Shown: positions 8,534 through 35,461 of the stretch, one piece after another
How positions within the stretch are numbered: the stretch's first letter is position 1
How the letters are laid out: each line of letters begins with the position of its first letter
NCBI GenBank assembly: GCA_963815675.1
Contig: CAWFHP010000006.1
Location: forward strand, 448,360 to 512,359
Length of the DNA: 64,000 nt
Source of the DNA: an uncultured Acidobacteriota bacterium
GTDB taxonomy: Bacteria > Acidobacteriota > Vicinamibacteria > Marinacidobacterales > SMYC01
Direction of reading: 5' to 3'
Translations under genes and position numbers: made by a program
Notes under the pieces: model-generated
What the model saw: the letters and a program-made list of their open reading frames with translations, nothing else
What the model was told of the DNA's origin: nothing
The model's database searches: none

Positions 8534-10502
8534 TCAGATCGAGTGGACCTTTTCGAGCTCGGGCTTGCGATCGCTCTCCGTCGCCCCCGCTTCTGATGCA
8601 GGCCCGGGCGCCTGTTCGCCGACGGGCTTCCGCACGATCCCGTCGAAGAGGAACATCGACGAGTCGGCGAGGACGCCCTGGGCGAGGCGATAGCCCATGC
8701 GGTCGGTGTTGCGGCCGACGCCCCGGAAGGCGTCCTCGATCCGCAGTCGGGAGTTCGCGCAGAAGTGCTCGACGAGAGCGAGGACTTCTTTACGGTCGAC
8801 TCCCTCCCCGATGAGCGCCTGCGCCCGGGTGGCGGAGGCGGCCTGGGCGAAGAGCTCGGTGCCGACATCCACGAATCGCGCGAGGAGCATCTGCTCCCGC
8901 TCGAGCTTGGGTCCGTACTTCACCATGGCGTAGAACATCTTCCGCGCGAGCTTCTTGCTGGTGCGACCGACATAGCGCATGTGAGAGGCGAGCGCGCGGT
9001 CCATCCCGGCGGTCGGAACCATGGCGGGAAGCGAAGGTTCGCGGATACCAGCTGAGGTAGAACAGGCCCGCCTTCATCGCGGCAGCGAAGCGCCGGCCGA
9101 AGGGAAGCTTCGGGTTCATCACCGCCCCCGCGACCTTCAGGTGCGGGTCCATGGCCTCGCGGGCGATGAAGAGGCGCATGATCTCCGTCGAGCCCTCGAA
9201 TATCCGGTTGATGCGGGCGTCGCGCATGGCGCGCTCGATCATGAACGGCTTGTCTCCGCGGGCCCTCGAGGACTGCGCGGTCTCGTACCCCCGGCCCCCG
9301 AGAATCTGCATCGTTTCGTCGACGATGTTCCAGGCGGCCTCGGTCCCGAACATCTTGGTCATCGCCGCCTCGACACGGATGTCCGTCTTCTTGCGGTCGA
9401 CGAGCGCGGAAGTGAGGTAGGTCATGGACTCGATCGCAAAAATCGTCGAGGCGATGCGGGCGATCTTGTCGGCGATGGCGGCGTGCTTGCCGATGGGAGC
9501 ACCCCACTGCTCGCGCTCGTTGGCCCACCCTTTCGCCATTTCGAGCGAGCGCTTCGCGAGCCCGACGCAAACGGCGGGGAGCGTGATCCGGCCGGTGTTG
9601 AGCGTGGTGAGCGCGACCCGGAGCCCCTTGCCTTCGCCGGCAATGATGTTCTCCCTCGGTACTTTCACGTCGGTGAAGCGAAGGACGCCGTTATAGAGCG
9701 CCTTCAGACCCATGAACTCGCATCGATGCACGACTTCGATGCCCGGTGACGCGGCATCGACGACGAACGCCGTGATTTGATCGCGCTTGCGCCCGTTCAC
9801 CAGTTTCGCCGGGGTCTTGGCCATGACGACGATGAAGGCGGCACGGGTGCCGTTGGTGCACCATAGCTTCTCACCGTTGATGACGTAGAACTTCCCGTCC
9901 TCGGTCGGCTCGGCCGTAGTCTCCATCCTTGCCGGGTCGGAGCCGACTCCCCGCTCGGTGAGGGCGAAAGCCGAGATCTCGCCCGCCGCGACCCTTGGAA
10001 GGAAACGCTTCTTCTGCTCCTCGGTGCCGAAAAGGAGAAGCGGCTGAGGGACTCCGATCGATTGGTGAGCGGAGAGCAGAGCGGAAAGGTTTCCGCAGTA
10101 GCTCCCCAGAAGCACCGCCGCACGGGTATAGACCTGCTGGGTGAGCCCGAGCCCGCCGTACTCGCGCGGGATCTTGATCCCGAACGCTCCGAGAGCGCGC
10201 AATCCCTCGATGACCCGTTCCGGGATCTCGCCTTCGCGATCGATGCGGTCGGGGTCGACCTCTTCGCGCAGGAATCGTTCGAGCTCGGAGAGAAACCGGC
10301 GCCCGCGCTCGTCCTGGTCGGAGGCGAGCTCGGGATAAGGATGGACGAGACGAAAGGGAACGTCACCCATGAACAGGGCGCCGGCGAAAGTCGGATACTC
10401 CCAGAACCCCTCGCGGGACGATTCGGTGAGCTCGAAGGCAGCGCGTTTCGCCTCCGACATCTTCGACGTGTCGAGGACCGGCTCGTTCGGTTGCTGGCTC
10501 AT
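8534..10502 (-). CDS. Acyl-CoA dehydrogenase (long form with C-terminal extension); apparent frame change near 9020-9060
   Basis: ORF 8790..10607 carries the ACAD core with the true ATG at 10502 (MSQQPNEPV...). The C-terminal extension (MVPTAGMDRALASHMRYVGRTSKK...) continues in a second frame, 8534..9022. Confidence 0.75.
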
Positions 10503-11152
10503 TTGGGTTCTCCTTCGTTCCTTTCGGGAGCGACGTGCCGCGTGAGCATCTCGGTCACTTCGTCGCGGGCCACGTCGAGGTCGATCGACTCCTCGTCGAA
10601 GACCCATTGGAGCATGACGCCGTCGATGGCGGCTTGAACGAGAGACGCCGTCGTCCGTACCGGGAGCGGCCGCATCTCTCCAGTCTTCCGTCCTTCTTCG
10701 AGAATGTGGGCGAGATAATGGCGCGACGGCTCGTACGCCTCCGCGTTCAACGAGCTCTCGTCACCCGCGCCGTACCGCTGGCCCCAGAGCGCGACGAGGG
10801 CGACATAGCCGACGCGGTGTGACTTCATGAACTCGAAGTTGGCGGCGACGTAGGCCCCGAGCTTTTCGAGGGCCGTCCCCGCGGAGTCGACTCGCTCCTT
10901 CACGAACTCCGCCGGTTTGCGCAGCAGGCTCCGCAGGATCTCGTCGAGGAGCTCCTCCTTCCCGTCGAAGTGATAGGAGATGACTCCCTTACTAATCCCG
11001 GCTTTCTTAGCAATTTCGGCGAGAGAGGCTTGTGAATATCCGTGCGCGGCGATGGTTTCTATGGCGGTCTCTACGATCTGCCGGCGCCTCGCCTCCTCGA
11101 TGAAGCTCGGCTTCTTCTGACCGATCGACTCAATATTTGACTGCACGGCCAA
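10499..11152 (-). CDS. TetR/AcrR-family transcriptional regulator
   Basis: 217 aa with an N-terminal HTH (SLAEIAKKAGISKGVISYHF). Its stop overlaps the ACAD start by 4 nt, suggesting a regulator-fadE-like operon. Confidence 0.85.
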   Translation of the reverse strand: MAVQSNIESIGQKKPSFIEEARRRQIVETAIETIAAHGYSQASLAEIAKKAGISKGVISYHFDGKEELLDEILRSLLRKPAEFVKERVDSAGTALEKLGAYVAANFEFMKSHRVGYVALVALWGQRYGAGDESSLNAEAYEPSRHYLAHILEEGRKTGEMRPLPVRTTASLVQAAIDGVMLQWVFDEESIDLDVARDEVTEMLTRHVAPERNEGEPK

Positions 11153-23923: not shown

Positions 23924-25783
23924 ATGAAGATGACTGCGCCGACCGACCGCCGCCGATTCTTGCGTACGAGCGTCATCGGAGGCCTCGCGTTGACGCTGTC
24001 CGGCAAACGCTCGGCCCAAGGAGCCAGTTCCGGGTCGTCGTGCCGGGAACCTCTGCTTCCTCAGGAAGCTCCCGACCCTCGCTCCCGTCTCCGGCAGCTC
24101 GAGAGGACACGCAGCCTCTATATCTACGATTACGAGCGAATTCCCTCGCTGCCCATGGTGGAAAAGGTGCCTCCCCCGGACGCGTTCTCGCTCCCGTGGC
24201 TCCTCCAGGCGGGAGATCGCGTGGGGGACCTCGTCCGAAACTTCACGACCAGGCCCGGCATGACGGGGGCGGTCGCTTGGCGTCGCGCCGCCGAGATACT
24301 CTCGCGCGGCGCCGAGCTCGACGCGGGCCGGCTACTGGATGTCGCACGGCAATCGGCGTCTGCTCGAACGGGGCTCGATCGCGATCGCCCCCAGAGCCTG
24401 GACGACTACGCGGCGCTGTTTCGAACCATCGAGCCGCCCGGAATCATCGAGACTTTCCAGGACGATCGTGTTTTTGCGCTTCAGCGCGTGGCTGGGCCCA
24501 ATCCACTGGTGATTCGACAGGTCGCCGGACTCGACGACCGGTTCCCGGTCACGGAAGCGATGTACCGCTCCGTTCTACGGCACGACCGGCTCGATGCCGC
24601 GGCCAAGGAAGGTCGACTCTATCTCGCCGACTATGGCCAGCTCAACGGCGTCGAGAGAGGATTCTACCGCGGAGCCCCCAAGTTCCTCTCCGCCCCGCTC
24701 GCTCTGTTCGCGGTCGATCGACGGACGGGCGAGCTCGTTCCGATTGCGATTCAGTGCGAGCAGGAACCGGGCCCCGACAATCCGATTCTCACGAAGGATG
24801 ACGGTCACGCCTGGTCGATGGCCAAGACCCTCGTCCAGATCGCCGACGCCAACCTGCACGAGGCCGTCAGCCATCTCGGTCGCACGCACTTGTTCATCGA
24901 GCCCTTCGTGATCGCCACCGAGCGTCAGCTCGCGGAGAACCATCCTCTCCGACTCCTCCTGCGACCCCACTTCGAGGGAACGCTCGCCATCAACGAGCTC
25001 GCCCACAGACAATTGCTGGCTCCCGGCGGATTCGTGGACGAGCTCCTCGCGGGAACGCTGGAAGCCTCCTTGAGGCTCGCCGTCGAAGGAATACGAACCT
25101 ACGCCTTCGACGAAGCGATGCTGCCGAAAGCACTTCGATCGCGCGGAGTCGACGACCCCGGCGCTCTCCCGAGCTACCCCTATCGCGACGACGCGCTCCT
25201 CTACTGGAACGCGATCCGCGCCTGGGTACGCGACTATCTCGGGATCTACTATCGATCGGACGCGGATGTGCGGGACGACTTCGAGCTCGCCGGCTGGTAT
25301 CGGGAGCTCGTCGCTGCCGACGGCGGTCGTGTCACCGGTTTCGGTCGGGGTGACTCCATCGGAGGTCTGGACGAGGTCATCGATGCCGCCACCCTCCTCG
25401 TTTTCACGTCGAGCGTTCAGCACGCGGCACTGAACTTCCCTCAGTTCGATCTCATGACGTACGTCCCCAACATGCCGCTCGCGGGCTTCGCCCCGGCGCC
25501 CGCGTCCAGGGACGCCGACGAGCAGGACTTTCTCGATCTGCTTCCACCGATTCCTTCCGCGCGTCTCCAGCTCGTGATTCTCTATCTGCTGGGAACGGTC
25601 CACCACACGACGCTCGGCATGTATCGGGAAGAGGAGCTCTGCGATCCCCGGCTCCGGCGACCTCTCGCGAAATTTCGACACGAGCTCGATCGGATCGGCC
25701 GAATCATCGAGCAACGCAACCGCGTCCGCCCGCCCTACCCGTTCCTCGAGCGCCAGGGAATTCCGCAGAGCATCAATATTTGA
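23924..25783 (+). CDS. Lipoxygenase (Tat-secreted, bacterial mini-LOX)
   Basis: Intact 619-aa ORF. Tat signal (RRRFLRTSVIGGLALTL). Exact LOX iron-site spacing H-x4-H-x4-H-x17-H-x8-H (HEAVSHLGRTH...NH...PH). C-terminal isoleucine (IPQSINI). Confidence 0.85.
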   Translation: MKMTAPTDRRRFLRTSVIGGLALTLSGKRSAQGASSGSSCREPLLPQEAPDPRSRLRQLERTRSLYIYDYERIPSLPMVEKVPPPDAFSLPWLLQAGDRVGDLVRNFTTRPGMTGAVAWRRAAEILSRGAELDAGRLLDVARQSASARTGLDRDRPQSLDDYAALFRTIEPPGIIETFQDDRVFALQRVAGPNPLVIRQVAGLDDRFPVTEAMYRSVLRHDRLDAAAKEGRLYLADYGQLNGVERGFYRGAPKFLSAPLALFAVDRRTGELVPIAIQCEQEPGPDNPILTKDDGHAWSMAKTLVQIADANLHEAVSHLGRTHLFIEPFVIATERQLAENHPLRLLLRPHFEGTLAINELAHRQLLAPGGFVDELLAGTLEASLRLAVEGIRTYAFDEAMLPKALRSRGVDDPGALPSYPYRDDALLYWNAIRAWVRDYLGIYYRSDADVRDDFELAGWYRELVAADGGRVTGFGRGDSIGGLDEVIDAATLLVFTSSVQHAALNFPQFDLMTYVPNMPLAGFAPAPASRDADEQDFLDLLPPIPSARLQLVILYLLGTVHHTTLGMYREEELCDPRLRRPLAKFRHELDRIGRIIEQRNRVRPPYPFLERQGIPQSINI

Positions 25784-25831: not shown

Positions 25832-26122
25832 TCAGCGGTTGAAGGCCTGTCTCGCGCGCGCCGCCTGAATCTCGTGCAAGGTCTGCATGATGTTGAAAGC
25901 AGTCATCTCCACCAGGACCCGGGTGACCTTGTCGTGGAGCTCGTCGGAAAGCTGCCCCTCCACCGCCTTCATCGCCGCCGTCAGGCGAGACTGCTGTTCT
26001 TCCAGCTCCCGGTTTTCCACCACACCATCCGCCATCGCCTGGGTGAAAGAGGCGAGTTTCTGGACCATCTCGTCGATGGCGGGAAGATCGGATTTGTCGT
26101 TCAACCAGCTCGCACGCGCCAT
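25832..26122 (-). CDS. Small all-helical hypothetical protein (96 aa)
   Basis: Clean ORF ~200 bp downstream of the AAA ATPase on the same strand. No recognisable motif. Confidence 0.4.
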   Translation of the reverse strand: MARASWLNDKSDLPAIDEMVQKLASFTQAMADGVVENRELEEQQSRLTAAMKAVEGQLSDELHDKVTRVLVEMTAFNIMQTLHEIQAARARQAFNR

Positions 26123-26328
26123 GATCGCGACTCCTTTTCCTGAATGGCATCTACTGCATTAGTGCCGTGGGGCTCCACCCCCACGGCTTCTAGTGTCGTC
26201 GGCCCATCTGCCAGTGCGCGCTCTCTCCTCGTTCGCGCGCTGTCCTCCGCTCGCAGGCTCGCTGCGGACGGCGGCGGGCCGTGCTTCCTCCGGTCGCGCA
26301 GGGTGCGTGTGACTCTTTCAGCACCCTG

Positions 26329-28143
26329 CTACAGACTCTCTACCATCCGCTTGAGGAGCGTGAGACGCTCCTGCAATTTGCTCCGTCCGCCCTGTTTCTC
26401 GACGCGGGCAAGCGTCTCGGTCGTGAGGAACTGGCGGTCGGTACACTCGAGAATCGCCGCGACTTCCTGGAGCTCGCGCTCCAGACCTTGCGTCGAAGGC
26501 ATGAACTGCTTGATCACTTCCGCGAGAGTCTCACGGGTGATCGCGGACTGTCCCGCCAGCAGGGAACGCCGGAGCGCGCGGCCAACCATCCCCTCGATGT
26601 CGGCGCCGGAGAGCTCCCCGCGCTGAGGGATCTCGGGAACGTCCTCGATCGAGAGCACGGCGCCGAGCTTTTTCGCCAGAATCACGAACATCGATCGGAT
26701 CTCGTTCTCGTCGGTGGGATAAAAAAGCGGGATGTGTACCTCCGCTCGCCCCTGACGCTTGATGTCGATCGGGAGGAGGTCGGGCCTGCAGGTGAGCAGC
26801 ATCCAGAGGATCTGGCCGCGGTAGCGCGTGTCTCCCATCTGAGCGGCGATCATCGCGAAGACGCGGCTCGACGTACCCGAGTCGCCGTCTTGATCGCGGT
26901 TGCCGAGCGCCGCGTCGGCCTCATCGACCACCACCACCACCGGCCCCATCGCCCGGAGCACCGAGAGCACGCGCTCCAGGTTCCCCTCGGTCTCACCCAC
27001 GTACTTGGAACGGAAGTTCTTGAGCACGACGCAGGGAATTCCAATCTCGCCGGTAGCGCACTGGGCGAGAAAGGTCTTCCCCGTCCCCACCGGTCCGCAG
27101 ACCAGGTACCCCATGGGCAGGCTCTCGAGCGCTCCCCGCTTGAGCAGAGCGGCGTCTTCCCGGAGCCGGCCTTTGGCGCCCTCGTGGCCGATCACGAAGT
27201 CCAGGGTCCACCGCGGCTCGATGAACTCGAGAAGCCCTTGACACTGCCTCTCGATGAGGCGCTTCTTCAGCTCGCGAAACACCTTCTCGTCGAGTCTGCG
27301 GCCGCCTTCGACGGTGGATTGGATGAGGACGTTCACGTCAGTGAGTGAAATCCCGGCGGTGAGCTTGGCGAGCTCCGGCACCTCGAAATCGGAGAACTGC
27401 TTGAGATCGCGCTTCCCCACGGTGAAGCGGATGAAGCGCTCCCTCTCCGCCTGTTCGGGAAGAGGCACCTCAATCGCGGCCACGTGCAGGCTCCCGGAGA
27501 GACGCTCGGATACGGAGGAGAGCTTCTCTTCCACGAGAACGAAGGCCATGTTGAGCCGCTTCACGTGGGGGCTCGACGCCCAGTTGAGGAGGGTGACGAG
27601 ATTGGTGGAAGCGGATAGCGAAAGCTGACCCGGCTCTCCCGCCGGCGCGATGTACGAGGCGTGGTCGATGACGATCGCCATCGACAATCGGGCGTCTTCG
27701 GGCGCCATGACGTTGAGATAGACGGCGCGGTCGAGAGCGGAGAGCACCGAGGCCGGGTCCTTCTTCAGCTGCGAGAGGTCTCCTACCTTCCGGTTGGCGA
27801 GGGCGACCATGTCCTTCAGCCGATCGCCGTCGCGGCCGGACAGCGCCCTCAGCCCGCGCGCGAGGTCGTAGTGGAGCACGAGATTCCAGCGACCGAAGAT
27901 CTGCTCCGCCAGAAACTCGGAAAGAGTGACGTAGCGGGCATCCGCCTCCTCACCGCTCGGGACGAAGTCCTGCACGTTTCCATGCAGGATGAACATCGAC
28001 GTCGTTCCCGAGAAGTAGAGCTCGCCCATCCGACGGGCCCAGCCGGGAAGCCAGGCGGGGAGCGCTGCCGGCGTTCCCAATGGGTGCGTCTCGCGCTCGG
28101 CGGGAAGCGCACCACCCTGCTCGGGATCGGCCTCAGGCTTCAC
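26329..28143 (-). CDS. Classic-clade AAA+ ATPase with a large (~330 aa) N-terminal domain
   Basis: Walker A (GPVGTGKT), Walker B (VVVVDEAD) and second region of homology are present. SKYVGETEGNLERV is typical of the FtsH/Vps4/CDC48 clade. The N-terminal domain contains a degenerate P-loop-like ILHGNVQD. There is no protease or sigma-54 activator domain. Confidence 0.75.
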   Translation of the reverse strand: MKPEADPEQGGALPAERETHPLGTPAALPAWLPGWARRMGELYFSGTTSMFILHGNVQDFVPSGEEADARYVTLSEFLAEQIFGRWNLVLHYDLARGLRALSGRDGDRLKDMVALANRKVGDLSQLKKDPASVLSALDRAVYLNVMAPEDARLSMAIVIDHASYIAPAGEPGQLSLSASTNLVTLLNWASSPHVKRLNMAFVLVEEKLSSVSERLSGSLHVAAIEVPLPEQAERERFIRFTVGKRDLKQFSDFEVPELAKLTAGISLTDVNVLIQSTVEGGRRLDEKVFRELKKRLIERQCQGLLEFIEPRWTLDFVIGHEGAKGRLREDAALLKRGALESLPMGYLVCGPVGTGKTFLAQCATGEIGIPCVVLKNFRSKYVGETEGNLERVLSVLRAMGPVVVVVDEADAALGNRDQDGDSGTSSRVFAMIAAQMGDTRYRGQILWMLLTCRPDLLPIDIKRQGRAEVHIPLFYPTDENEIRSMFVILAKKLGAVLSIEDVPEIPQRGELSGADIEGMVGRALRRSLLAGQSAITRETLAEVIKQFMPSTQGLERELQEVAAILECTDRQFLTTETLARVEKQGGRSKLQERLTLLKRMVESL

Positions 28144-29094
28144 TTCGCTGTACTCCTCTCCAGTCGGTGTCGAGAATCGCCGGCGGCTCTTCCAGCTCGT
28201 CAGAGAGGCCGGTGATGTGCTGAAGCTCGCCCATGGCTTTTTCCGTCTGCCGCATGCTCTCGGCGACGGAATCGACCTGGCTGCTGAGGAAATCCGGGTC
28301 CTGGCGGTTCACCGCCGTCTCGGTGAGAACCTGGATCTTTCCCTCGATGCGATCGAGCTCGATGGCGACGAACTCGGCGTTCTTCTTCGCTTTGCGGTAG
28401 TTCTCGAGCCTGAGCTCGTTGACCGCCACGCTGTCCTGAAGAGATCGAATCATCCGTTCGTCGCCCTGGCCCTCGCTGGCCCTGGCCCTGAGTTTGAGTT
28501 TGAGTTTGAGCGGCGAGATTTTTCTTCAGCTCCTCGACTCGGTTGGTCATTTCCTTCTCATTCGTCGACCGGAGAAACCGCTCGAGCGCGTCCTGCGAGC
28601 GCAGCAAACGGAGGAAGAGCCAGAGAAGACGGTCGAGTACCGGCGTGCGGATCTCCTCGCCCACCGTTGCTCCCTGCGCGCCCGTGCCGCCGCGTACTCC
28701 ATGGGCGATGGCCCGCATTTCGACGCAGCGAGCACGCAGCTGATCGAATCGCTTGCCGCGCGTCGTTCGGAAGGCTGTCGAGGATCTCGGCCACCGAGCG
28801 CATCGCCGGCGGCGGCGGTCCGGAGACGACGTGCCCCTTCGCTTCCTGGTGCACTCGGGCGTCGATGGCCGCGCGAAACCTGGGAATGGAGACGAGTCCG
28901 GCCAGGTAGGTGAGCTCCCCCGCCGCCACCAGAGGCAGGAGCGCACCCGGCAGGGGAGAGAGGATCGCCGCTGCGCTCGCTCCCATGAAGAGGAGAAGGT
29001 TCCAGCGAAAGAAGAAGGCCTGCTTGAGATACTCACCCAGGCCGGCACCCTCTCGCAGAGGTCGTTTCGGCAGGCCGAGCCCGGGCGTGGTCAT
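28133..29094 (-). CDS. Membrane-anchored coiled-coil hypothetical protein with a PspA-C-terminus-like tail; 2 apparent frame changes
   Basis: ATG at 29094 lies 7 nt after the ABC ATPase stop. One or two TM helices (FFFRWNLLLFMGASAAAILSPLPGALLPLVAAG), a (QT)3(GQ)2 linker encoded by hexamer repeats, and a helical C-terminus (ORF 28133..28453). The pieces sit in ORFs 28558..29400, 28200..29048 and 28133..28453. Confidence 0.5.
28461..28509. repeat. Adjacent short tandem repeats (CCCTGG/CTGGCC x~3, then AGTTTG x3) in the linker of the membrane coiled-coil gene
   Basis: Read directly. Encode (QT)3(GQ)2 on the minus strand. A frame change is inferred here. Confidence 0.8.
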
Positions 29095-29101
29095 GCTGCG
29101 G

Positions 29102-29971
29102 CTACTCGTCTCCGGCTCGTGTGGAAGACTCGAGCTTCTCGACGATATCCCGAATCTCCCAGACCCGCTCGAGGAAGTCGGGCTTGCGCTCCATTTCCCG
29201 CGGTGGAAGGGCCGGGGGTGGCATCTCCATCTCGCGCAAGATGGTTCCTGGAGACGAGGAGAAGATGTAGACGCGGTCGCCGAGGTAGACCGCTTCCTCG
29301 ATCGAGTGGGTAATGAAGAAGACCGTCGCCTCGTTCTCTCTCCACAGATCGACGAGGAGCTCCTGCATGTTGAGCCGGGTCGGAGGGTCGAGGGCACCAA
29401 AGGGCTCGTCCATGAGAATGATTCGGGGAGAGAGGATGAGGGTCCGCGCGATCGCCACCCGCTGCCTCATTCCACCCGAGAGCTGATGGGGAAACTTGTC
29501 GGCATCGCGCTTCACGTCGAGGCCGACCTTGCCGATCCACTGCCGGGCGCGGGTGTAGCGCTCCTCGGCGTCGACCCCGCGGCACTCGAGACCGAACGCC
29601 ACGTTGTCGAGAACCGAGCGGTTGTCGAACGAGGTGTAGTCCTGAAAAACCATGCCGCGATCCGAGCCCGGTCCCGAGACCGGCTTCCCGTCCACCAGCA
29701 CTTCCCCTTGGCTCGCCGGGTGATGGGGCCTCAACCCGGCGATGAGGCGCAGCACCGTCGACTTGCCGCATCCGGATGGACCGAGGATGGCGACGAACTC
29801 GCCGCGATCGGGTCGATCCTTGACGGTGAAGGTCACGTCCCGGATGGCAGTGAAGCCGTTCTGCGGATCGCCGAAACGCTTGGTCACGTTTCTGAACTCG
29901 ACCACCGCCCGGAGCTCCGCCGACGGATCGGCCCCGGCGGGCGAGGACGGCGCCTTCTCCGCCACGCTCAC
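29102..29971 (-). CDS. ABC transporter ATP-binding protein (NitT/TauT SsuB-like)
   Basis: Walker A GPSGCGKST, signature LSGGMRQR, Walker B ILMDEPFGALD. GTG start at 29971 overlaps the permease stop (GTGA). Confidence 0.85.
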   Translation of the reverse strand: MSVAEKAPSSPAGADPSAELRAVVEFRNVTKRFGDPQNGFTAIRDVTFTVKDRPDRGEFVAILGPSGCGKSTVLRLIAGLRPHHPASQGEVLVDGKPVSGPGSDRGMVFQDYTSFDNRSVLDNVAFGLECRGVDAEERYTRARQWIGKVGLDVKRDADKFPHQLSGGMRQRVAIARTLILSPRIILMDEPFGALDPPTRLNMQELLVDLWRENEATVFFITHSIEEAVYLGDRVYIFSSSPGTILREMEMPPPALPPREMERKPDFLERVWEIRDIVEKLESSTRAGDE

Positions 29972-30792
29972 TCTTCCTCCTGTCGATAAGGAAACAACCC
30001 CTTCTGGAACCACAGGAGCACCCGATCGATTCCGTACGCGAGCGCGCCGATGATCAACAGGATGAGAATGATGTGCTCCGAAAGCCCACGCCGCTGGCTC
30101 GTCATCAACAGGTATCCGAGACCATGCTTGGCGTTGATCAGCTCGGCCAGCATGATGTAGCCGAAGGCCATCCCGAAGAGCGAGCGCAGGCTCGCATAGA
30201 TGTCGGGCATCGCGAGCGCCACCAGCACCTTCCACACCACCTGCGAGGGGCGCGCCCCGAGCGTCTCGGCGGTCTCCACATAACGTTCATGGACGCCGGC
30301 CACGGCCCGCACGGTGTCGGCAAAAACGAAAGGCACGCAGGCAATGAACAGGAACATGACCTTCTGCAGCTCGTCGATTCCGAACCAGACGATGGTGAGC
30401 GGGATGAGGGCCGCCACCGGGATGTTCCGCCCGAAGAGCGAAATCGGCGCGCTCGCCGCGTCGACGACCCTCCAGGCTCCGGCCATGATGCCGAGGGGCA
30501 CCCCCACGAGGGCGGCGAGGCCGAATCCAATCAAGACGCGGCGTAGAGTCGCGGCGATGCTGGCGAAGAGCCCCCGATCGCGCACCAGCAATCCGAGGCT
30601 TCCCACTACTTCTCCCGGGCTCGGCAGGATTACCGGCGAGAGGATACGAGCCTCCGGCGTCGGGCCCCGGGTAAGGGCCCACCAGACGACGACGAGCATC
30701 GCGACCGTTCCCGCTCCCAGGAGCCGGGCCACGAGGGGAGAGGGAACGACCCGTAGCTCGAGAAGCCCGGGCCGAGCGTCCTGGGTCATGTT
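29968..30792 (-). CDS. ABC transporter permease (NitT/TauT SsuC-like)
   Basis: ~274 aa with 6 TM helices and a BPD-transporter EAA-like loop. Its start overlaps the binding-protein gene stop. Confidence 0.8.
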   Translation of the reverse strand, partial: NMTQDARPGLLELRVVPSPLVARLLGAGTVAMLVVVWWALTRGPTPEARILSPVILPSPGEVVGSLGLLVRDRGLFASIAATLRRVLIGFGLAALVGVPLGIMAGAWRVVDAASAPISLFGRNIPVAALIPLTIVWFGIDELQKVMFLFIACVPFVFADTVRAVAGVHERYVETAETLGARPSQVVWKVLVALAMPDIYASLRSLFGMAFGYIMLAELINAKHGLGYLLMTSQRRGLSEHIILILLIIGALAYGIDRVLLWFQKGLFPYRQEEE

Positions 30793-32532
30793 CAGTTGCC
30801 CGTGGGCGTGGCTTCCGCCGGAAAGACCTTGATCTCCACCCGGCGATTCTTCGCCTGATTCAACGGATCCTGCGGATCGGCAGGACGATCCCAACCCATG
30901 CCCGACGTCGAGAACTGGTTTGGCTGGAGAGTCTTGAACTTCCGCAGGATGGCCTCTTTGACCGAGTTGGCTCGGTTGCGCGAGAGCTCCTTCACCAGGT
31001 TATCCGGCGTTCTCCCCTTCATGGAGGAGTCGGTATGGCCCTCGATGACGATGCGCGCGGCCCCGTATTGGCCGGCGAGCTTTCCGACCTCTTCGACGAC
31101 GAAGTCGGCGTTGGGATCGTAGAGCTCCTCGCGATCCTTCCCGTCCACGTTCTTCGTGATCTTCTTGTTCAAGTCCCACGAGTTGGGGAAGAAATGGATG
31201 ACCACGGTCTTGGTGAGGATCTCGTTGCTTTCGGCCTCGATCGCGCCGGCGGGCGAGGGAGCGAACTGAACGTCGTACTCGTTGCGCTGATTGGCGTACT
31301 TCGCTTCGTTTCCCAGCTTCTGGATGACCGAGAAGTCCATGACCTGGTCGAAAGGAGTCTTGTCGCTCACCACTCCGATCTTCTTGTACAGGAAGTACGC
31401 GGTGTTCCAGGTACGCTCGAAATTGGTGGGGTTGTTCTGGTTCAGGAAGAACTCGCGGTTCTCGGCGTAGTTGGTGGAGTGAGCGTCCCCGAGCATGCCG
31501 AGCGCGTCCGTTTCCGGAATGGAATAGCCGTCAGCCATGAGCTTGGCGGCTTTCTGTTTGGCATCTTGCTGCTTCAAGTCGACCATGGCATCGAGGATGC
31601 CGCGCACCAGGCCCTCGGTGATGTCGGGGTTATCCTTGGCGAAGTCGGCCCGGGCGAACCAGACGTCGGCAATGAGCTTGTTGGCCGTTGCGGTCGTGAC
31701 GAGAAGGCGGTTGCCTTTGATGTTTTCCAGGTTGTAGATGTCCGGTGCCCAGCTCACGCATCCAGCGATGGACTTGTCGGCGTTGAAGGCGGCCGCTGCC
31801 TGGAACGCGTCCTGGGTGAACTTGAAATCCACCTCCCCTGGCTGCACACCGGAGTTGATGAGCGCGTTCAGCGCGAAGAAATGCGAGGGCGAGTTCTGCG
31901 CCAGCACGAGAGTTTTTCCGCGCAGGTCGGACATGGTCTTGATGCTGTCGCGCACCACGATCCCGTCTCCGCCATTGGACCAGTCGATTTGCTGGAACAC
32001 GCGCGGCATCACCCGGGAGTCCTTTCTCAAGCCCCTCGAGAAACAGGGGGATCATGTCCAGCGTGGCCCATCCGACATGGACGTTGCCGGCGGCATAGGC
32101 GTCGCGCATGGCCACCGGATCGTCGATCAAAACCAGCTCCACTTTGAAGTCCTTGCCGGTCGGGGTCTTCCACGCCTTGCCCGGCTTGAAGCCATCGTTG
32201 GCATAGATGATCGGGCTCCAACCGGCCCAGACGTTGATGGCGAAGCGCACGGTGCGGTCGGCCATGGGCTTGTAGTTGGAGATCCCCGAGACCTCGGGGA
32301 GCTTCGCCGCCGGAACGTAGTTGTACTCCTTGACGGTGGTGATGCCCCCGCTGTCGGGAGCCTCGGCGCCGCCCACCGCGTTTTGCAGGTCCTGCTGGCT
32401 GATCTTGGCGCCGCCCTCACCGCTGGTTCCGAGGGCTCCGAACCGCCAGAGCGCGAGGCCGACCAGGCCCAGGATGACGACCAGCACCGCGAGATAGAAG
32501 GACGGTTTTGGCTTTCCGCTCGACATCTTCAA
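30792..32532 (-). CDS. ABC substrate-binding protein (NMT1/SsuA-like) fused to a C-terminal OmpA-like peptidoglycan-binding domain; apparent frame change near 32035
   Basis: Signal-anchor N-terminus (ORF 31630..32532) continues into the SBP body (ORF 30792..32030) across a GGGGG run. C-terminus is OmpA-like (IVIEGHTDSSMKGRTPDNLVKELSRNRANSVKEAIL...NRRVEIKV). Confidence 0.65.
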
Positions 32533-32563
32533 ACCTCCGAAGGGGACTCGCGTCCAGACGCGA

Positions 32564-33329
32564 TCAATTCGTTTGCTCTTCCTTGGTCTTGCTCGTTACC
32601 TGCGCCGGCCCGAGCTCCTTCGCGGACTCGGCCACCGGAGTGGTCTCGGGCGACTTCAAACCCAGCTCGACCTCGTAGTCGGTGAGCGCTTGCTCGGCCA
32701 GCGCCTGCTCCATTTTCTCCTCGGCCTGGATCTCGGCGACCCCTTTCTCGGAGAGATCGACGGCGACCCGGGTCTTGCCGCGGTTCTTGTCGATTTTCTC
32801 CTGGATGACGGTCTCGAGCTGACCGAAATCGGTCGTGACGTTCATGTCGAAGCTCTCGGCGAGTGCCGCGATCTCGGCTTCGGCGGCAGCTCATCTTCAG
32901 CTCGGCGTCATATTTCTGTATCTTTTGCCTGACGTCGACGAGCTTGGAATTGGCGTGCTTGATCTTCTTCAGGTTGTTCTCGTACGCCATCTCGTGCATC
33001 TTGAGCTGCTCTTCGTTGGACACCAGCTCCTTTTGCGCCTTCTGGAGCTCCAGGGCGAACTTCGCCGCCGTCGGCCGATCGCCGGCTTTGAGGTAGGCCT
33101 TCGTCTCCGCCTCGAGCTTCTGGACGTGCTCGCGGTTGGTATCGACTTGACGGGTGACCCGCTCCACCAGGCCGCGGTACTGCTCGAGTCCGCGCCGCCC
33201 TTCCTTGAGCTGTTCGACGGCGAGGTCGTACTCGTACTGCATCTGGGCGATGGGGTCCGCTTCCCAAAAGAGGTTGGCGAGCTGGTTCAGCTGGGCGCGA
33301 AAAGCGGCCCAGATCTTTCCGAAAATCAT
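32564..33329 (-). CDS. pspA: PspA/IM30/Vipp1-family (bacterial ESCRT-III-like) protein; apparent frame change near 32895
   Basis: N-terminus MIFGKIWAAFRAQLNQLANLFWEADPIAQMQYEYDLAVEQLKEG... is canonical PspA. The C-terminal helices continue in ORF 32564..32845 after a 1-bp frame break. Confidence 0.75.
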
Positions 33330-33537
33330 CGACGTGTCTCCTTCATCCCGCGCAACTGTCGTTCATCGGTCTCACCGGCGTTACCTTCCTCGGCGAGGAG
33401 TCTCGTCCGGATAGATGTCGTCGAGCGGCCCGGGTGAGCTCGACGCGGCTGGAGAAATGGGAGCCGGGCGTCGTTTCGGACGCGGTTCGATTTCGGGCTG
33501 CTGAGGAGCGGGATCACGCGCTGCCGCTTCCAAACAA

Positions 33538-33580
33538 TCGTAACGGGGACGGGCGTAACGGGCGTAACGGGCGTAACGGG
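33538..33580. repeat. Tandem 9-bp repeat (GGCGTAACG x3 perfect, plus one imperfect copy) in the divergent pspA/kinase intergenic region
   Basis: Read directly: tcgtaacggggacgg gcgtaacgg gcgtaacgg gcgtaacgg. Located ~210 bp upstream of the pspA start. Confidence 0.9.
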
Positions 33581-33848
33581 ATCGAAAGTCGACCAAGGGC
33601 CAGCGAGAACCGGTTGATACCTGCCGCGACGGTTCGCGCGCGCTCGACGTGGAGTAAAAGCAGGGCGCGCCGAAGCTCTCATCCGACTGAAAATCCGAGT
33701 GTAGCATACTCCCCGGGCCTCGGCCTATCGAGGGATCCGCCCCCGCGGGACCGAGACGGAAAGCCGTCTTACCTCGCGGAATCGGGTCAAATCACGGAGT
33801 GGAACGGCTCACACATATCAAGTCGGGGGTAGAATAGGAACCGCCGTC

Positions 33849-34571
33849 GTGAAAGACATCGAATCGTTCGACCTCGTGCCGGGGCGAACCCTGGCGCGCA
33901 AGTACGAGATCGTTTCCCGCCTCGGCGGCGGGTGGGAAGGCGAGGTGTACCGCATTCGGGAGAAGAGGACGGGGATCGAGCGCGCCGCGAAGCTCTTCTT
34001 TCCCCAGCGCAACCTCCGGAACAAGGCGGCGAAATTCTACGCCCGCAAGCTCCACAAGCTCCGGGACTGTCCCATCGTCATCCACTACCACACCGAGGAG
34101 ACCGTTCTCCTCCGCAGAATGCCGATCACGGTGCTCGTTTCGGAGTACGTGGAGGGGGAGCTTCTCGACGACTTCCTCGCGCGGCAACCGGGCGGAAGAC
34201 TCCATCCGTTCCAGGCGGTTCACCTGCTCTACGCACTCGTCAAGGGCGTCGAGTGTATCCATCGCCTTCGCGAGTACCACGGCGATCTCCATCCGGGAAA
34301 CGTGATCGTCGAGCGATACGGCCTCCGCTTCGATCTCAAGATTCTGGACTTCTTTCACTGGGAATCCGCCCCCAAACGAGAAGGACTTCAGGACGACATC
34401 GTTTTTCTCATCCGGATCTTCTATGACGCACTCGGGGGCGCGCGCTTCTACACGCGCCAGCCCCGACAAGTGAAACAGATTTGCTGCGGTCTCAAGCGCT
34501 CACTGATTCTCCGGCGCTTTCCCAGCGTGACTCAGCTGATGCAGCACCTGGAACTGCTGCGATGGGATTGA
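33849..34571 (+). CDS. Small atypical protein kinase (PKL fold; Kdo/RIO/eukaryotic-like catalytic loop HGDLHPGNVIV)
   Basis: 240 aa with a lysine in the ERAAK motif, catalytic YHGDLHPGNVIV and DFF (DFG-like). Confidence 0.65.
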   Translation: MKDIESFDLVPGRTLARKYEIVSRLGGGWEGEVYRIREKRTGIERAAKLFFPQRNLRNKAAKFYARKLHKLRDCPIVIHYHTEETVLLRRMPITVLVSEYVEGELLDDFLARQPGGRLHPFQAVHLLYALVKGVECIHRLREYHGDLHPGNVIVERYGLRFDLKILDFFHWESAPKREGLQDDIVFLIRIFYDALGGARFYTRQPRQVKQICCGLKRSLILRRFPSVTQLMQHLELLRWD

Positions 34572-35461
34572 GGGCGAAGTCCGGGAAGCCCGAGGAGCTC
34601 GATTCCGGCGCATTCCGCCTCTTCGTGGAGCAGGAGCTTCTCGACTCCGCACGATACTTCGTCGGCAACGGCGAGGTGGCGGTCTATTCCCGGCGCAGCC
34701 CGTCAGGAGGATCTCCCAACGAGGATGCGGCGATCCTCGTTTCCACCGGAGATGAAGGGGCAGTGCTCGCGGTGGCGGACGGCCTCGGCGGCGCGCCGGC
34801 GGGGGACAAGGCGTCGTCCATCGCGGTTGCCTGTCTCTCCGAAGCGGTCCTCGCCGCCTCACGAGACGCCCGAGAAATCCGGGCGGGCATCCTCGACGGG
34901 TTCGACCGCGCGAACGCCGAGGTGCACGCGCTCGGTGTCGGCGCCGGCACGACCCTGACCGTCGCGGAGGTGAACGGCTCCTCGGTGCGCGCGTATCACG
35001 TGGGCGATTCGTTTTTTCTCGTGACCGGGAATCGAGGCAGAGTCAAGGCGCAGACAATCTCTCATTCACCCGTGGGATACGGCATCGAGTCGGGGCTACT
35101 CGACCCGGAAGGAGCGATGCACCATGTCGAGCGCCATTTCGTGAGCAACGTGATCGGAAGCTCCGACATGCACATCGAGGTGGGCTCGCCGCTCGCGCTC
35201 GGACCGCGCGACACAATCGTCATCGGAAGCGACGGCCTTTCCGACAATCTTCACACCGAGGAGATCGTCGACTGCGTGCGGAAGGGCCCCCTCGCGCGTG
35301 CATGCCGCGAGCTCGGCCGCCGGGCCGGCGAACGGATGGAAGGCGGCACGGGCGAGACGCCTTCGAAACCCGACGACTTGACGTTCCTCGTCTACCGCCG
35401 CCGCCGCTCCCCTTCGACGCGCCGCCGAAACGACGCGGGATCGATGGCGGGAAAACGATAG
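34562..35461 (+). CDS. PP2C-family Ser/Thr phosphatase
   Basis: Metal-binding motifs AVADGLGG, HVGDS, GSDGLSD and a C-terminal DDLT. Overlaps the kinase gene by 10 nt. Confidence 0.8.
   Translation: MGLRAKSGKPEELDSGAFRLFVEQELLDSARYFVGNGEVAVYSRRSPSGGSPNEDAAILVSTGDEGAVLAVADGLGGAPAGDKASSIAVACLSEAVLAASRDAREIRAGILDGFDRANAEVHALGVGAGTTLTVAEVNGSSVRAYHVGDSFFLVTGNRGRVKAQTISHSPVGYGIESGLLDPEGAMHHVERHFVSNVIGSSDMHIEVGSPLALGPRDTIVIGSDGLSDNLHTEEIVDCVRKGPLARACRELGRRAGERMEGGTGETPSKPDDLTFLVYRRRRSPSTRRRNDAGSMAGKR

Follow-up and report, generated by a model that had tools for sequence, protein, structure and literature searches.

Here, we analysed a 64,000-nucleotide (nt) stretch of DNA from an uncultured Acidobacteriota bacterium (contig CAWFHP010000006.1 of GenBank assembly GCA_963815675.1, positions 448,360–512,359 of the forward strand; hereafter, the window), in which seven co-directional genes on the minus strand (25832–33329) connect pspA, encoding a PspA/IM30 protein of the ESCRT-III superfamily, with a gene for an ATPase composed of two AAA modules. 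We regard the chances as about even that this locus is an envelope-stress and membrane-remodelling operon built around PspA and a dedicated tandem AAA+ unfoldase. The aromatic pore loop, both arginine fingers and the Walker A and B motifs of the second AAA module, next to a degenerate first module, support this reading, as do genes that are tightly spaced or translationally coupled. To the narrower proposal, drawn from protein sequences, we give somewhat less credence: the ATPase would be a dedicated ATP-driven remodeller of PspA in at least five bacterial phyla, recognizing the PspA tail, possibly via its dead first AAA ring or a 96-amino acid (aa) partner protein. For the disassembly and recycling of bacterial ESCRT-III proteins (PspA, Vipp1), a still unsettled question, the operon family provides a concrete candidate for the enzyme.

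Organization of the operon

In the order in which they lie on the minus strand, the genes encode PspA (32564–33329; ~254 aa after frame correction), a substrate-binding protein fused to an OmpA domain (SBP-OmpA; 30792–32532; ~579 aa after frame correction), an ATP-binding cassette (ABC) permease of the BPD_transp_1 family resembling TauC/SsuC/NtrB (29968–30789), an ABC ATP-binding subunit resembling TauB/SsuB/NtrCD (29102–29971), a helical transmembrane (TM) protein of ~317 aa belonging to no Pfam family (28133–29094), the 604-aa AAA protein, and a 96-aa helical protein (25832–26122), which is a conserved partner with no assigned family. The AAA protein comprises an N-terminal module (D1; 27214–28143, ~310 aa), which is a degenerate AAA domain, and a classic-clade C-terminal module (D2; 26329–27213). 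This gene content, order and orientation had been proposed in a preliminary description made from the sequence of the window, and we recovered the same arrangement from Pfam and NCBIfam matches combined with the coordinates of the open reading frames (ORFs).

The same description placed the genes 0–30 nt apart or overlapping, which holds for the first five junctions. Thus, pspA and the SBP-OmpA gene are separated by 31 nt, and the SBP-OmpA and permease genes by 2 nt; the GTG start of the ABC ATPase gene, placed at 29971 by tblastn, overlaps the permease stop codon (GTGA); the ABC ATPase and TM-protein genes lie 7 nt apart; and the TM-protein and AAA genes overlap by 11 nt. The sixth junction departs from this spacing, since the AAA and 96-aa genes are separated by 206 nt (26123–26328). 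The tight or overlapping junctions lend support to the idea, already put forward in the preliminary description, that the genes in the window are likely to form a single operon. In the orthologous locus of the closest relative (L001), the last spacer measures 29 nt, 177 nt less than in the window, and most of the 206-nt sequence is missing from it. This spacer contains two perfect 9-bp hairpins, one at 26164–26187 and the other at the AAA stop codon (26298–26329; GCAGGGTGC / GCACCCTGC); no T-run follows the latter, which was hence not scored as an intrinsic terminator. The arrangement as a whole is far beyond chance: relatives carry the same genes, undisrupted and in collinear order, as do dozens of species genomes.

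The ATPase and its two AAA modules

The D2 module matches PF00004 with an E-value of 3e-21 and carries the motifs of a classic-clade AAA ATPase, namely a Walker A motif (GPVGTGKT), a pore loop (KYVG), a Walker B motif (VVVVDEAD) and the arginine fingers R463 and R466 of the second region of homology. These elements are invariant or nearly so in the family and align with those of VAT and p97, and D2 is followed by a conserved helical C-terminal extension of ~50 aa with an ‘ECT’ motif. The best PDB matches of D2 were VAT, Afg2, p97 and Cdc48 (E-values from 5e-30 to 1e-26), whereas fidgetin-like proteins reached only 3e-16. NCBIfam models gave 69.9 bits for CDC48 (TIGR01243, with a cutoff of 802), 68.1 for PAN, 50.9 for FtsH and 43.8 for CdvC, all far below the respective family cutoffs. 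Because these scores fall below the cutoffs and the structural relatives are VAT, Afg2, p97 and Cdc48, the ATPase is a member of an uncharacterised family that is closer to Cdc48/VAT/PAN than to Vps4/CdvC.

Pfam, PDB and NCBIfam comparisons agree with the preliminary assignment of the ATPase to the classic clade and its distinction from PspF. Neither a Sigma54_activat nor a helix-turn-helix (HTH) domain was detected in it with Pfam or NCBIfam, and the same two collections gave no assignment to the CbbX or SpoVK type, families of an unrelated role that the preliminary description had named as examples of matches that would refute its proposal. We also considered the anti-phage IetAS and IteA systems and rejected them, as the matches were at the generic AAA level (68 bits in PADLOC; 57.5 bits for NF042959 against a cutoff of 510). 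The operon lacks an IetS-type protease partner, and PADLOC gave no match for its remaining proteins.

The N-terminal domain of ~330 aa, which had been described as having an unknown fold, is, according to profile comparisons, a degenerate, nucleotide-blind AAA module, and this is the D1 referred to above. Its Walker A position reads ‘LHGNVxD’ and lacks GK[ST], the DE of Walker B is replaced by ‘D(H/Y)A’, and the lid helix is kept as ‘LTAGISL’. When a profile built from 19 diverse N-domains was compared with the PDB, all 60 of the matches listed were classic AAA ATPases, with E-values of 7.7e-9 for p97 and 2.2e-7 for Cdc48 and an alignment spanning the region from the Walker B strand to the lid. 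In line with this result, hhalign aligned the N-domain with the C-terminal AAA module of the same family over 136 columns (E-value of 3e-5), pairing ‘AvvIDyAE’ with ‘VvIDEAD’ and ‘TAGLtl’ with ‘LSGADIE’. Only ~30 variable residues precede D1. The preliminary description had asked whether the N-domain might be MIT-like or a degenerate AAA-D1; the second option prevails, as Pfam and NCBIfam detect no MIT domain in the ATPase, and among PDB entries the N-domain profile matches AAA modules only. Since the N-domain is a degenerate D1, a docking model of the MIT/MIM type has no basis here.

Conservation across bacterial phyla

The ATPase family is large, with more than 7600 matches; a search with only the N-domain recovered 1430 cluster representatives (50% identity) at an E-value of at most 1e-3. 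Close relatives of the ATPase occur in no fewer than 598 species-representative genomes. For the census, we took one genome per species, searching for ATPase relatives with a pattern derived from a tighter ATPase alignment (W[FM]L[LIM]T[CAS]RPD) and keeping 80 loci of the at least 598, and we identified the neighbouring genes by comparing the operon proteins with the six-frame ORFs of each locus. The full-context set consists of the 34 loci with no less than 6 kb of upstream and 6.5 kb of downstream sequence.

In this set, a same-strand pspA was present in the cluster in 33 of the 34 loci, the TM-protein gene in 32, the SBP-OmpA and permease genes in 31, and the ABC ATPase gene in 30. The 96-aa gene followed the AAA gene in 28 loci and in none of the five from Gemmatimonadota. 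The conservation of the pspA–AAA arrangement in relatives, on which the preliminary description had made its proposal depend, thus extends across phyla. Two gene orders exist: pspA-sbp-perm-abc-tm-aaa-(s96), where s96 stands for the 96-aa gene, occurs in Acidobacteriota, Gemmatimonadota and Myxococcota, and pspA-aaa-s96-sbp-perm-abc-tm in Planctomycetota and some ‘Deltaproteobacteria’. That the same genes have been kept together through rearrangement points to function rather than to an inherited order. In seven loci, pspA-aaa-s96 stands alone. The persistent pair is PspA and the ATPase, with the transporter, the TM protein and the 96-aa protein as frequent, dispensable companions; PspA, the ATPase and, in most lineages, the 96-aa protein constitute the conserved core.

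A more distant branch is represented by the cultured Gracilimonas tropica (DSM 19535; L083, 2157–5695), in which PspA, a 156-aa coiled-coil protein, a TM-protein homologue (E-value of 5e-26) and the ATPase are encoded within 6 kb and the transporter is missing. Just upstream of pspA in this species lies a gene of the pyrimidine-nucleoside phosphorylase type (Glycos_transf_3 and PYNP_C domains), and Ravi et al. 2024 (mSystems) reported a neighbour of the same type for Archangium gephyra. Its presence in both hints at a second conserved context of PspA and the TM protein. The family also includes variants of 840–860 aa with an extra N-terminal region of ~250 aa (P0282 and P0393–P0395); in the one locus of such long variants that was examined (L084, 8001–10535), no pspA was found within 8 kb.

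PspA and its C-terminal tail

After frame correction, the window PspA scores 42.3 bits against PF04012 (cutoff of 33.9; E-value of 8.5e-11), with residues 1–214 aligned to positions 1–205 of the 220-position model, and this near-full-length match above the Pfam gathering score places it in the PspA/IM30 family. Its orthologues are intact proteins of 252–254 aa, and the copies in L001 and in a second relative (L002) are called PspA_IM30. The operon-encoded PspA proteins form a tightly conserved subfamily with a tail of ~40 residues beyond the Pfam domain. The tail carries the motif AL..FE.(E/Q)(L/M)G(L/M)..PET, followed after 5–7 residues by K.LGP, which is kept in all four phyla, falls outside the polymer-forming core and is dissimilar to MIM1 and MIM2. 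We infer from its sequence that this tail is the best candidate for the element through which PspA may be recognized and engaged.

The transmembrane protein, the 96-aa protein and the transporter

The TM protein begins with a hydrophobic hairpin (approximately residues 25–70), followed by ~210 aa of long cytoplasmic helices, and has a conserved tail, EL...TG(L/M)....PP.IL. The preliminary description saw in it a helix resembling the PspA tail. We did not retain this similarity, as the top local match in hhalign had an E-value of 0.3–0.37, equal to that of a reversed decoy and hence at noise level. Ravi et al. 2024 (mSystems) labelled this protein ‘TM+Snf7’, a Snf7-like assignment that could not be reproduced here.

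In the 96-aa protein, 12 positions are invariant, namely W6, L23, F26, D32, G33, E39, Q43, L58, H63, T67, E72 and M79. No match rose above threshold, whether to AcylCoA_dehyd_C (24.8 bits, with a cutoff of 27), IcmW or HTH_61, and the protein was left unassigned. Its best PDB profile match was the peptide-binding PABC/MLLE domain, with a non-significant E-value of 0.21, in which ‘KVTxLLxE’ is paired with ‘KVTGMLLE’. We treat this resemblance as a lead toward a possible role of the 96-aa protein as a tail-binding adaptor, not as evidence for it.

The combination of a BPD_transp_1 permease, an ABC_tran ATPase and an NMT1/TauA-like binding protein identifies the transporter as an ABC importer of the NitT/TauT type, with all substrate-level equivalogs scoring below cutoff. 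SBP-OmpA matches OmpA (PF00691, E-value of 7.8e-11), Phosphonate-bd (7.7e-7) and NMT1 (5.7e-5) and has an N-terminal TM signal-anchor that lacks a lipobox cysteine. The binding protein thus sits anchored in the inner membrane, and its OmpA domain is of the peptidoglycan-binding type. No substrate was assigned, as the NCBIfam matches to urea-, taurine- and sulfonate-binding proteins all fell far below cutoff. The permease (PF00528, E-value of 3.5e-19) is 88% identical to its L001 orthologue, with SaoP, TauC and NtrB matches in NCBIfam below cutoff, and the ABC ATPase (PF00005, E-value of 7e-29) has a TauB-like match with an E-value of 1e-62, likewise below cutoff.

Flanking regions

The promoter presumably sits in the intergenic region (33330–33848) between pspA and a divergent Ser/Thr kinase gene, although neither a sigma-70 nor a sigma-54 consensus was found there on the operon strand. 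Regulation by PspF and sigma-54 was considered and rejected, given that no bacterial enhancer-binding protein domain is encoded and no −24/−12 match lies upstream of pspA. Within this region of ~520 nt, a 9-nt tandem repeat (CGTAACGGG) occurs four times at 33539–33580, a stretch that cannot be aligned to L001. Beyond it, at 33849–35461 on the plus strand, ORFs overlapping by ~90 nt encode a short, 240-aa Ser/Thr protein kinase and a 326-aa PP2C phosphatase, divergently from pspA. Of the relatives, only the closest, L001, has the same kinase/PP2C pair, which is hence not part of the system. A gene on the strand opposite to the operon (23924–25783, plus), immediately downstream of it, encodes a 619-aa lipoxygenase (PF00305, E-value of 5e-56), which is not present in the related loci examined. 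Lipoxygenases are uncommon among bacteria.

Frameshifts in the window

Three of the seven genes, those for PspA, SBP-OmpA and the TM protein, are not single ORFs in the window and together carry four frame-disrupting insertions, which the preliminary description had silently read through in treating each as one gene. Compared with L001, pspA has one extra nucleotide near 32887 and is consequently not an intact ORF, the SBP-OmpA gene has one near 32030, and the TM-protein gene has one near 28754 and 28 near 28505. Three-frame translation, the local sequence, tblastn with orthologous proteins and DNA alignment to L001 agree on these positions. The AAA, ABC ATPase and permease genes are intact in the window, and the three disrupted genes are intact in L001, the ATPase of which is 89% identical to that of the window, and in L002, from a 5.87-Mb genome. 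The frameshifted PspA product itself is missing from the protein collection.

The 28-nt excess lies within a CAAACT / GGCCAG repeat tract (28480–28530) that encodes, in the TM protein, a linker of low complexity (QTQTQTQGQGQ), and it may combine a genuine 27-nt expansion of the linker with a 1-nt error. A scan of G+C content at third codon positions was insensitive, recovering one of the four known shifts; it also exposed a frameshift near 9020–9040 in an acyl-CoA dehydrogenase gene (8534–10607, minus strand) unrelated to the operon. There, a 605-aa ORF turns into arginine-rich nonsense, and the true C-terminal part is found in a 162-aa ORF at 8534–9022, which suggests that indel errors occur window-wide. 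A long-read nanopore metagenome-assembled genome (MAG) from Microflora Danica (L034, 4522–8096), in which the SBP-OmpA, permease and ABC genes are broken into many short ORFs, illustrates how assembly indels can affect this GC-rich locus.

It would be conceivable that, in the genome represented by the window, the operon is a decaying cluster of pseudogenes in which all four indels are real; the disruption of three of the seven genes and the 177 extra nucleotides between the AAA and 96-aa genes point in this direction, and we regard such decay as unlikely but a possibility to be reckoned with. Against it stands the observation that, downstream of each shift, the correct frame is free of stops and 81–94% identical to L001. 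Moreover, the AAA, ABC and permease genes have remained intact, and the overall pattern is typical of assembly indels. Considering that the orthologues are intact, that an unrelated gene is frameshifted as well, that the operon is likewise fragmented in L034, and that the frames remain open after the shifts, assembly indels are considerably more likely than pseudogenization.

Proposed mechanism and alternative explanations

In the mechanism that we envisage, PspA polymers would form at the inner membrane under stress, where the helical protein with its two TM segments might nucleate or position them, and a hexamer of the ATPase would dock via the inactive ring of D1 modules, the 96-aa protein or both. 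The ATPase would then engage the exposed PspA tail and thread it through the D2 pore, and the extraction of subunits would remodel or recycle the PspA polymer. The peptidoglycan-tethered ABC importer might take up a small solute or report the state of the envelope as part of the same response. The function of the ATPase would be analogous to that of Vps4 on ESCRT-III, although the two enzymes are not orthologous.

Several points weigh against this scheme. The contact between PspA and the ATPase, like all the physical interactions and the direction of action, is inferred from sequence. Family-wide, the sensor-1 asparagine (ATN-RPD) is replaced by cysteine, alanine or serine (LTCRPD in the window; T[C/A/S]RPD in the family), and robust ATP hydrolysis is therefore not guaranteed. 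Vps4/CdvC differs from the window ATPase, which lacks an MIT domain and scores higher as CDC48 than as CdvC (69.9 versus 43.8 bits). In the TM protein, neither sequence nor fold similarity to the ESCRT-III proteins Snf7, CHMP and PspA could be detected. An AlphaFold2 single-chain model of the ATPase, built from a shallow alignment of 70–100% identity, was poor (predicted local distance difference test score, pLDDT, of 56.6); because it was too poor for a fold search, profile methods were used for the N-domain. Furthermore, no pspA lies within 8 kb of the genes for P0394 (844 aa) and P0385, two distant relatives in the ATPase family, and three operon genes are frameshifted in the window.

The relationship between the two core proteins might also be the reverse of the proposed one, with PspA holding the ATPase inactive and stress releasing it to act elsewhere, for instance, on the TM protein, the ABC transporter or damaged membrane proteins. 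In E. coli, PspA indeed inhibits PspF by binding to its AAA+ domain, a block that lasts until stress on the membrane recruits PspA there (PMC7619361), the adjacency of pspA and the AAA gene would suit a regulator and its target as well as a substrate and its enzyme, and the 11-nt overlap of the TM-protein and ATPase genes fits such an arrangement. However, PspF belongs to the clade of bacterial enhancer-binding proteins and possesses a DNA-binding domain, whereas the window ATPase carries neither Sigma54_activat nor HTH; its aromatic pore loop is typical of polypeptide threading, the conserved and apparently unstructured tail of PspA more closely resembles an engagement tag, and an alternative substrate of the ATPase is not indicated, all of which makes the inhibitory arrangement appear quite improbable. 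Another explanation would dispense with direct contact, uniting the importer, PspA as a membrane stabiliser and the ATPase as a general quality-control unfoldase for membrane proteins, with a role like that of FtsH or Msp1, in a regulon responding to shared envelope or osmotic stress. The occurrence of transporter genes in 31 of the 34 full-context loci, the presence of the osmoprotectant-binding protein ProX in archaeal ESCRT loci (PMC10936438) and the existence of distant ATPase-family members without pspA would all be compatible with mere co-regulation. Yet the transporter has been lost in the seven loci that retain pspA-aaa-s96, and also in G. tropica; because PspA and the ATPase stay together without it, they are the lasting pair, not the ATPase and the transporter. 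Given also that the tight coupling and a specialized PspA subfamily with its own tail motif favour a specific partnership, we consider co-regulation without contact unlikely.

Should the proposed action of the ATPase on PspA be true, a dedicated PspA remodeller would overturn the position taken in a 2025 review (PMC7619361), where an ATPase resembling Vps4 “appears absent in bacteria”, and ATPase-coupled ESCRT-III dynamics would have arisen either independently, from a Cdc48-like ancestor, or earlier than thought. Hundreds of species have conserved the candidate enzyme beside pspA, among them the cultured G. tropica with a variant arrangement, and, with a candidate recognition tail now defined, the question can be addressed with standard biochemistry.

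Comparison with known systems

The transporter shares the permease, ATPase and binding-protein folds with the NitT/TauT importers (TauABC, SsuABC and NrtABCD) and differs from them in that its binding protein is TM-anchored and fused to OmpA, with equivalog scores far below cutoff. As in the PspF–PspA pair of E. coli, an AAA+ protein is coupled to PspA; however, PspF carries an HTH and acts as an enhancer-binding protein for sigma-54, while the window ATPase has neither of these domains and pspA has no sigma-54 promoter upstream.

With Cdc48, p97 and VAT, the window ATPase shares a tandem AAA layout, and these proteins provide the best sequence matches for both D2 and the degenerate D1. Unlike them, it has no N-terminal double-psi barrel domain, its D1 lacks the P-loop lysine and the Walker B glutamate, and the sensor-1 asparagine of its D2 is replaced. 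Like Vps4 and CdvC, it is a classic-clade ATPase encoded beside a gene of the ESCRT-III superfamily (in 33 of the 34 full-context loci), with an aromatic pore loop, arginine fingers and C-terminal helices, and is presumed to remodel polymers. In contrast to the single cassette of these enzymes, it comprises two AAA modules, of which D1 is dead, and its relation to Vps4 is one of analogy and not of orthology.

The closest counterpart is the operon type described by Ravi et al. 2024 (mSystems), who found the same architecture by comparative genomics and proposed ATP-dependent remodelling of PspA, citing as examples OGG56892.1 from Candidatus Handelsmanbacteria and the AEY64320/AEY64321 dyad from Clostridium. 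The order that they reported (PspA, PBPB+OmpA, permease, ABC ATPase, TM protein and tandem AAA) is identical to that in the window, and the inactivity of the N-terminal AAA copy is confirmed independently here by the missing GK[ST] and DE. Their functional proposal is the same as the one favoured above. Hence, the operon and the Vps4-like idea are already known as a comparative-genomics prediction, and the novelty implied in the preliminary description does not stand; we found no experimental follow-up of this proposal in the literature. The value of the present analysis lies in confirmation, scope and sharper points for testing rather than in discovery, and what it adds to the published operon type is the census, the core triad, the PspA tail motif and the 96-aa partner.

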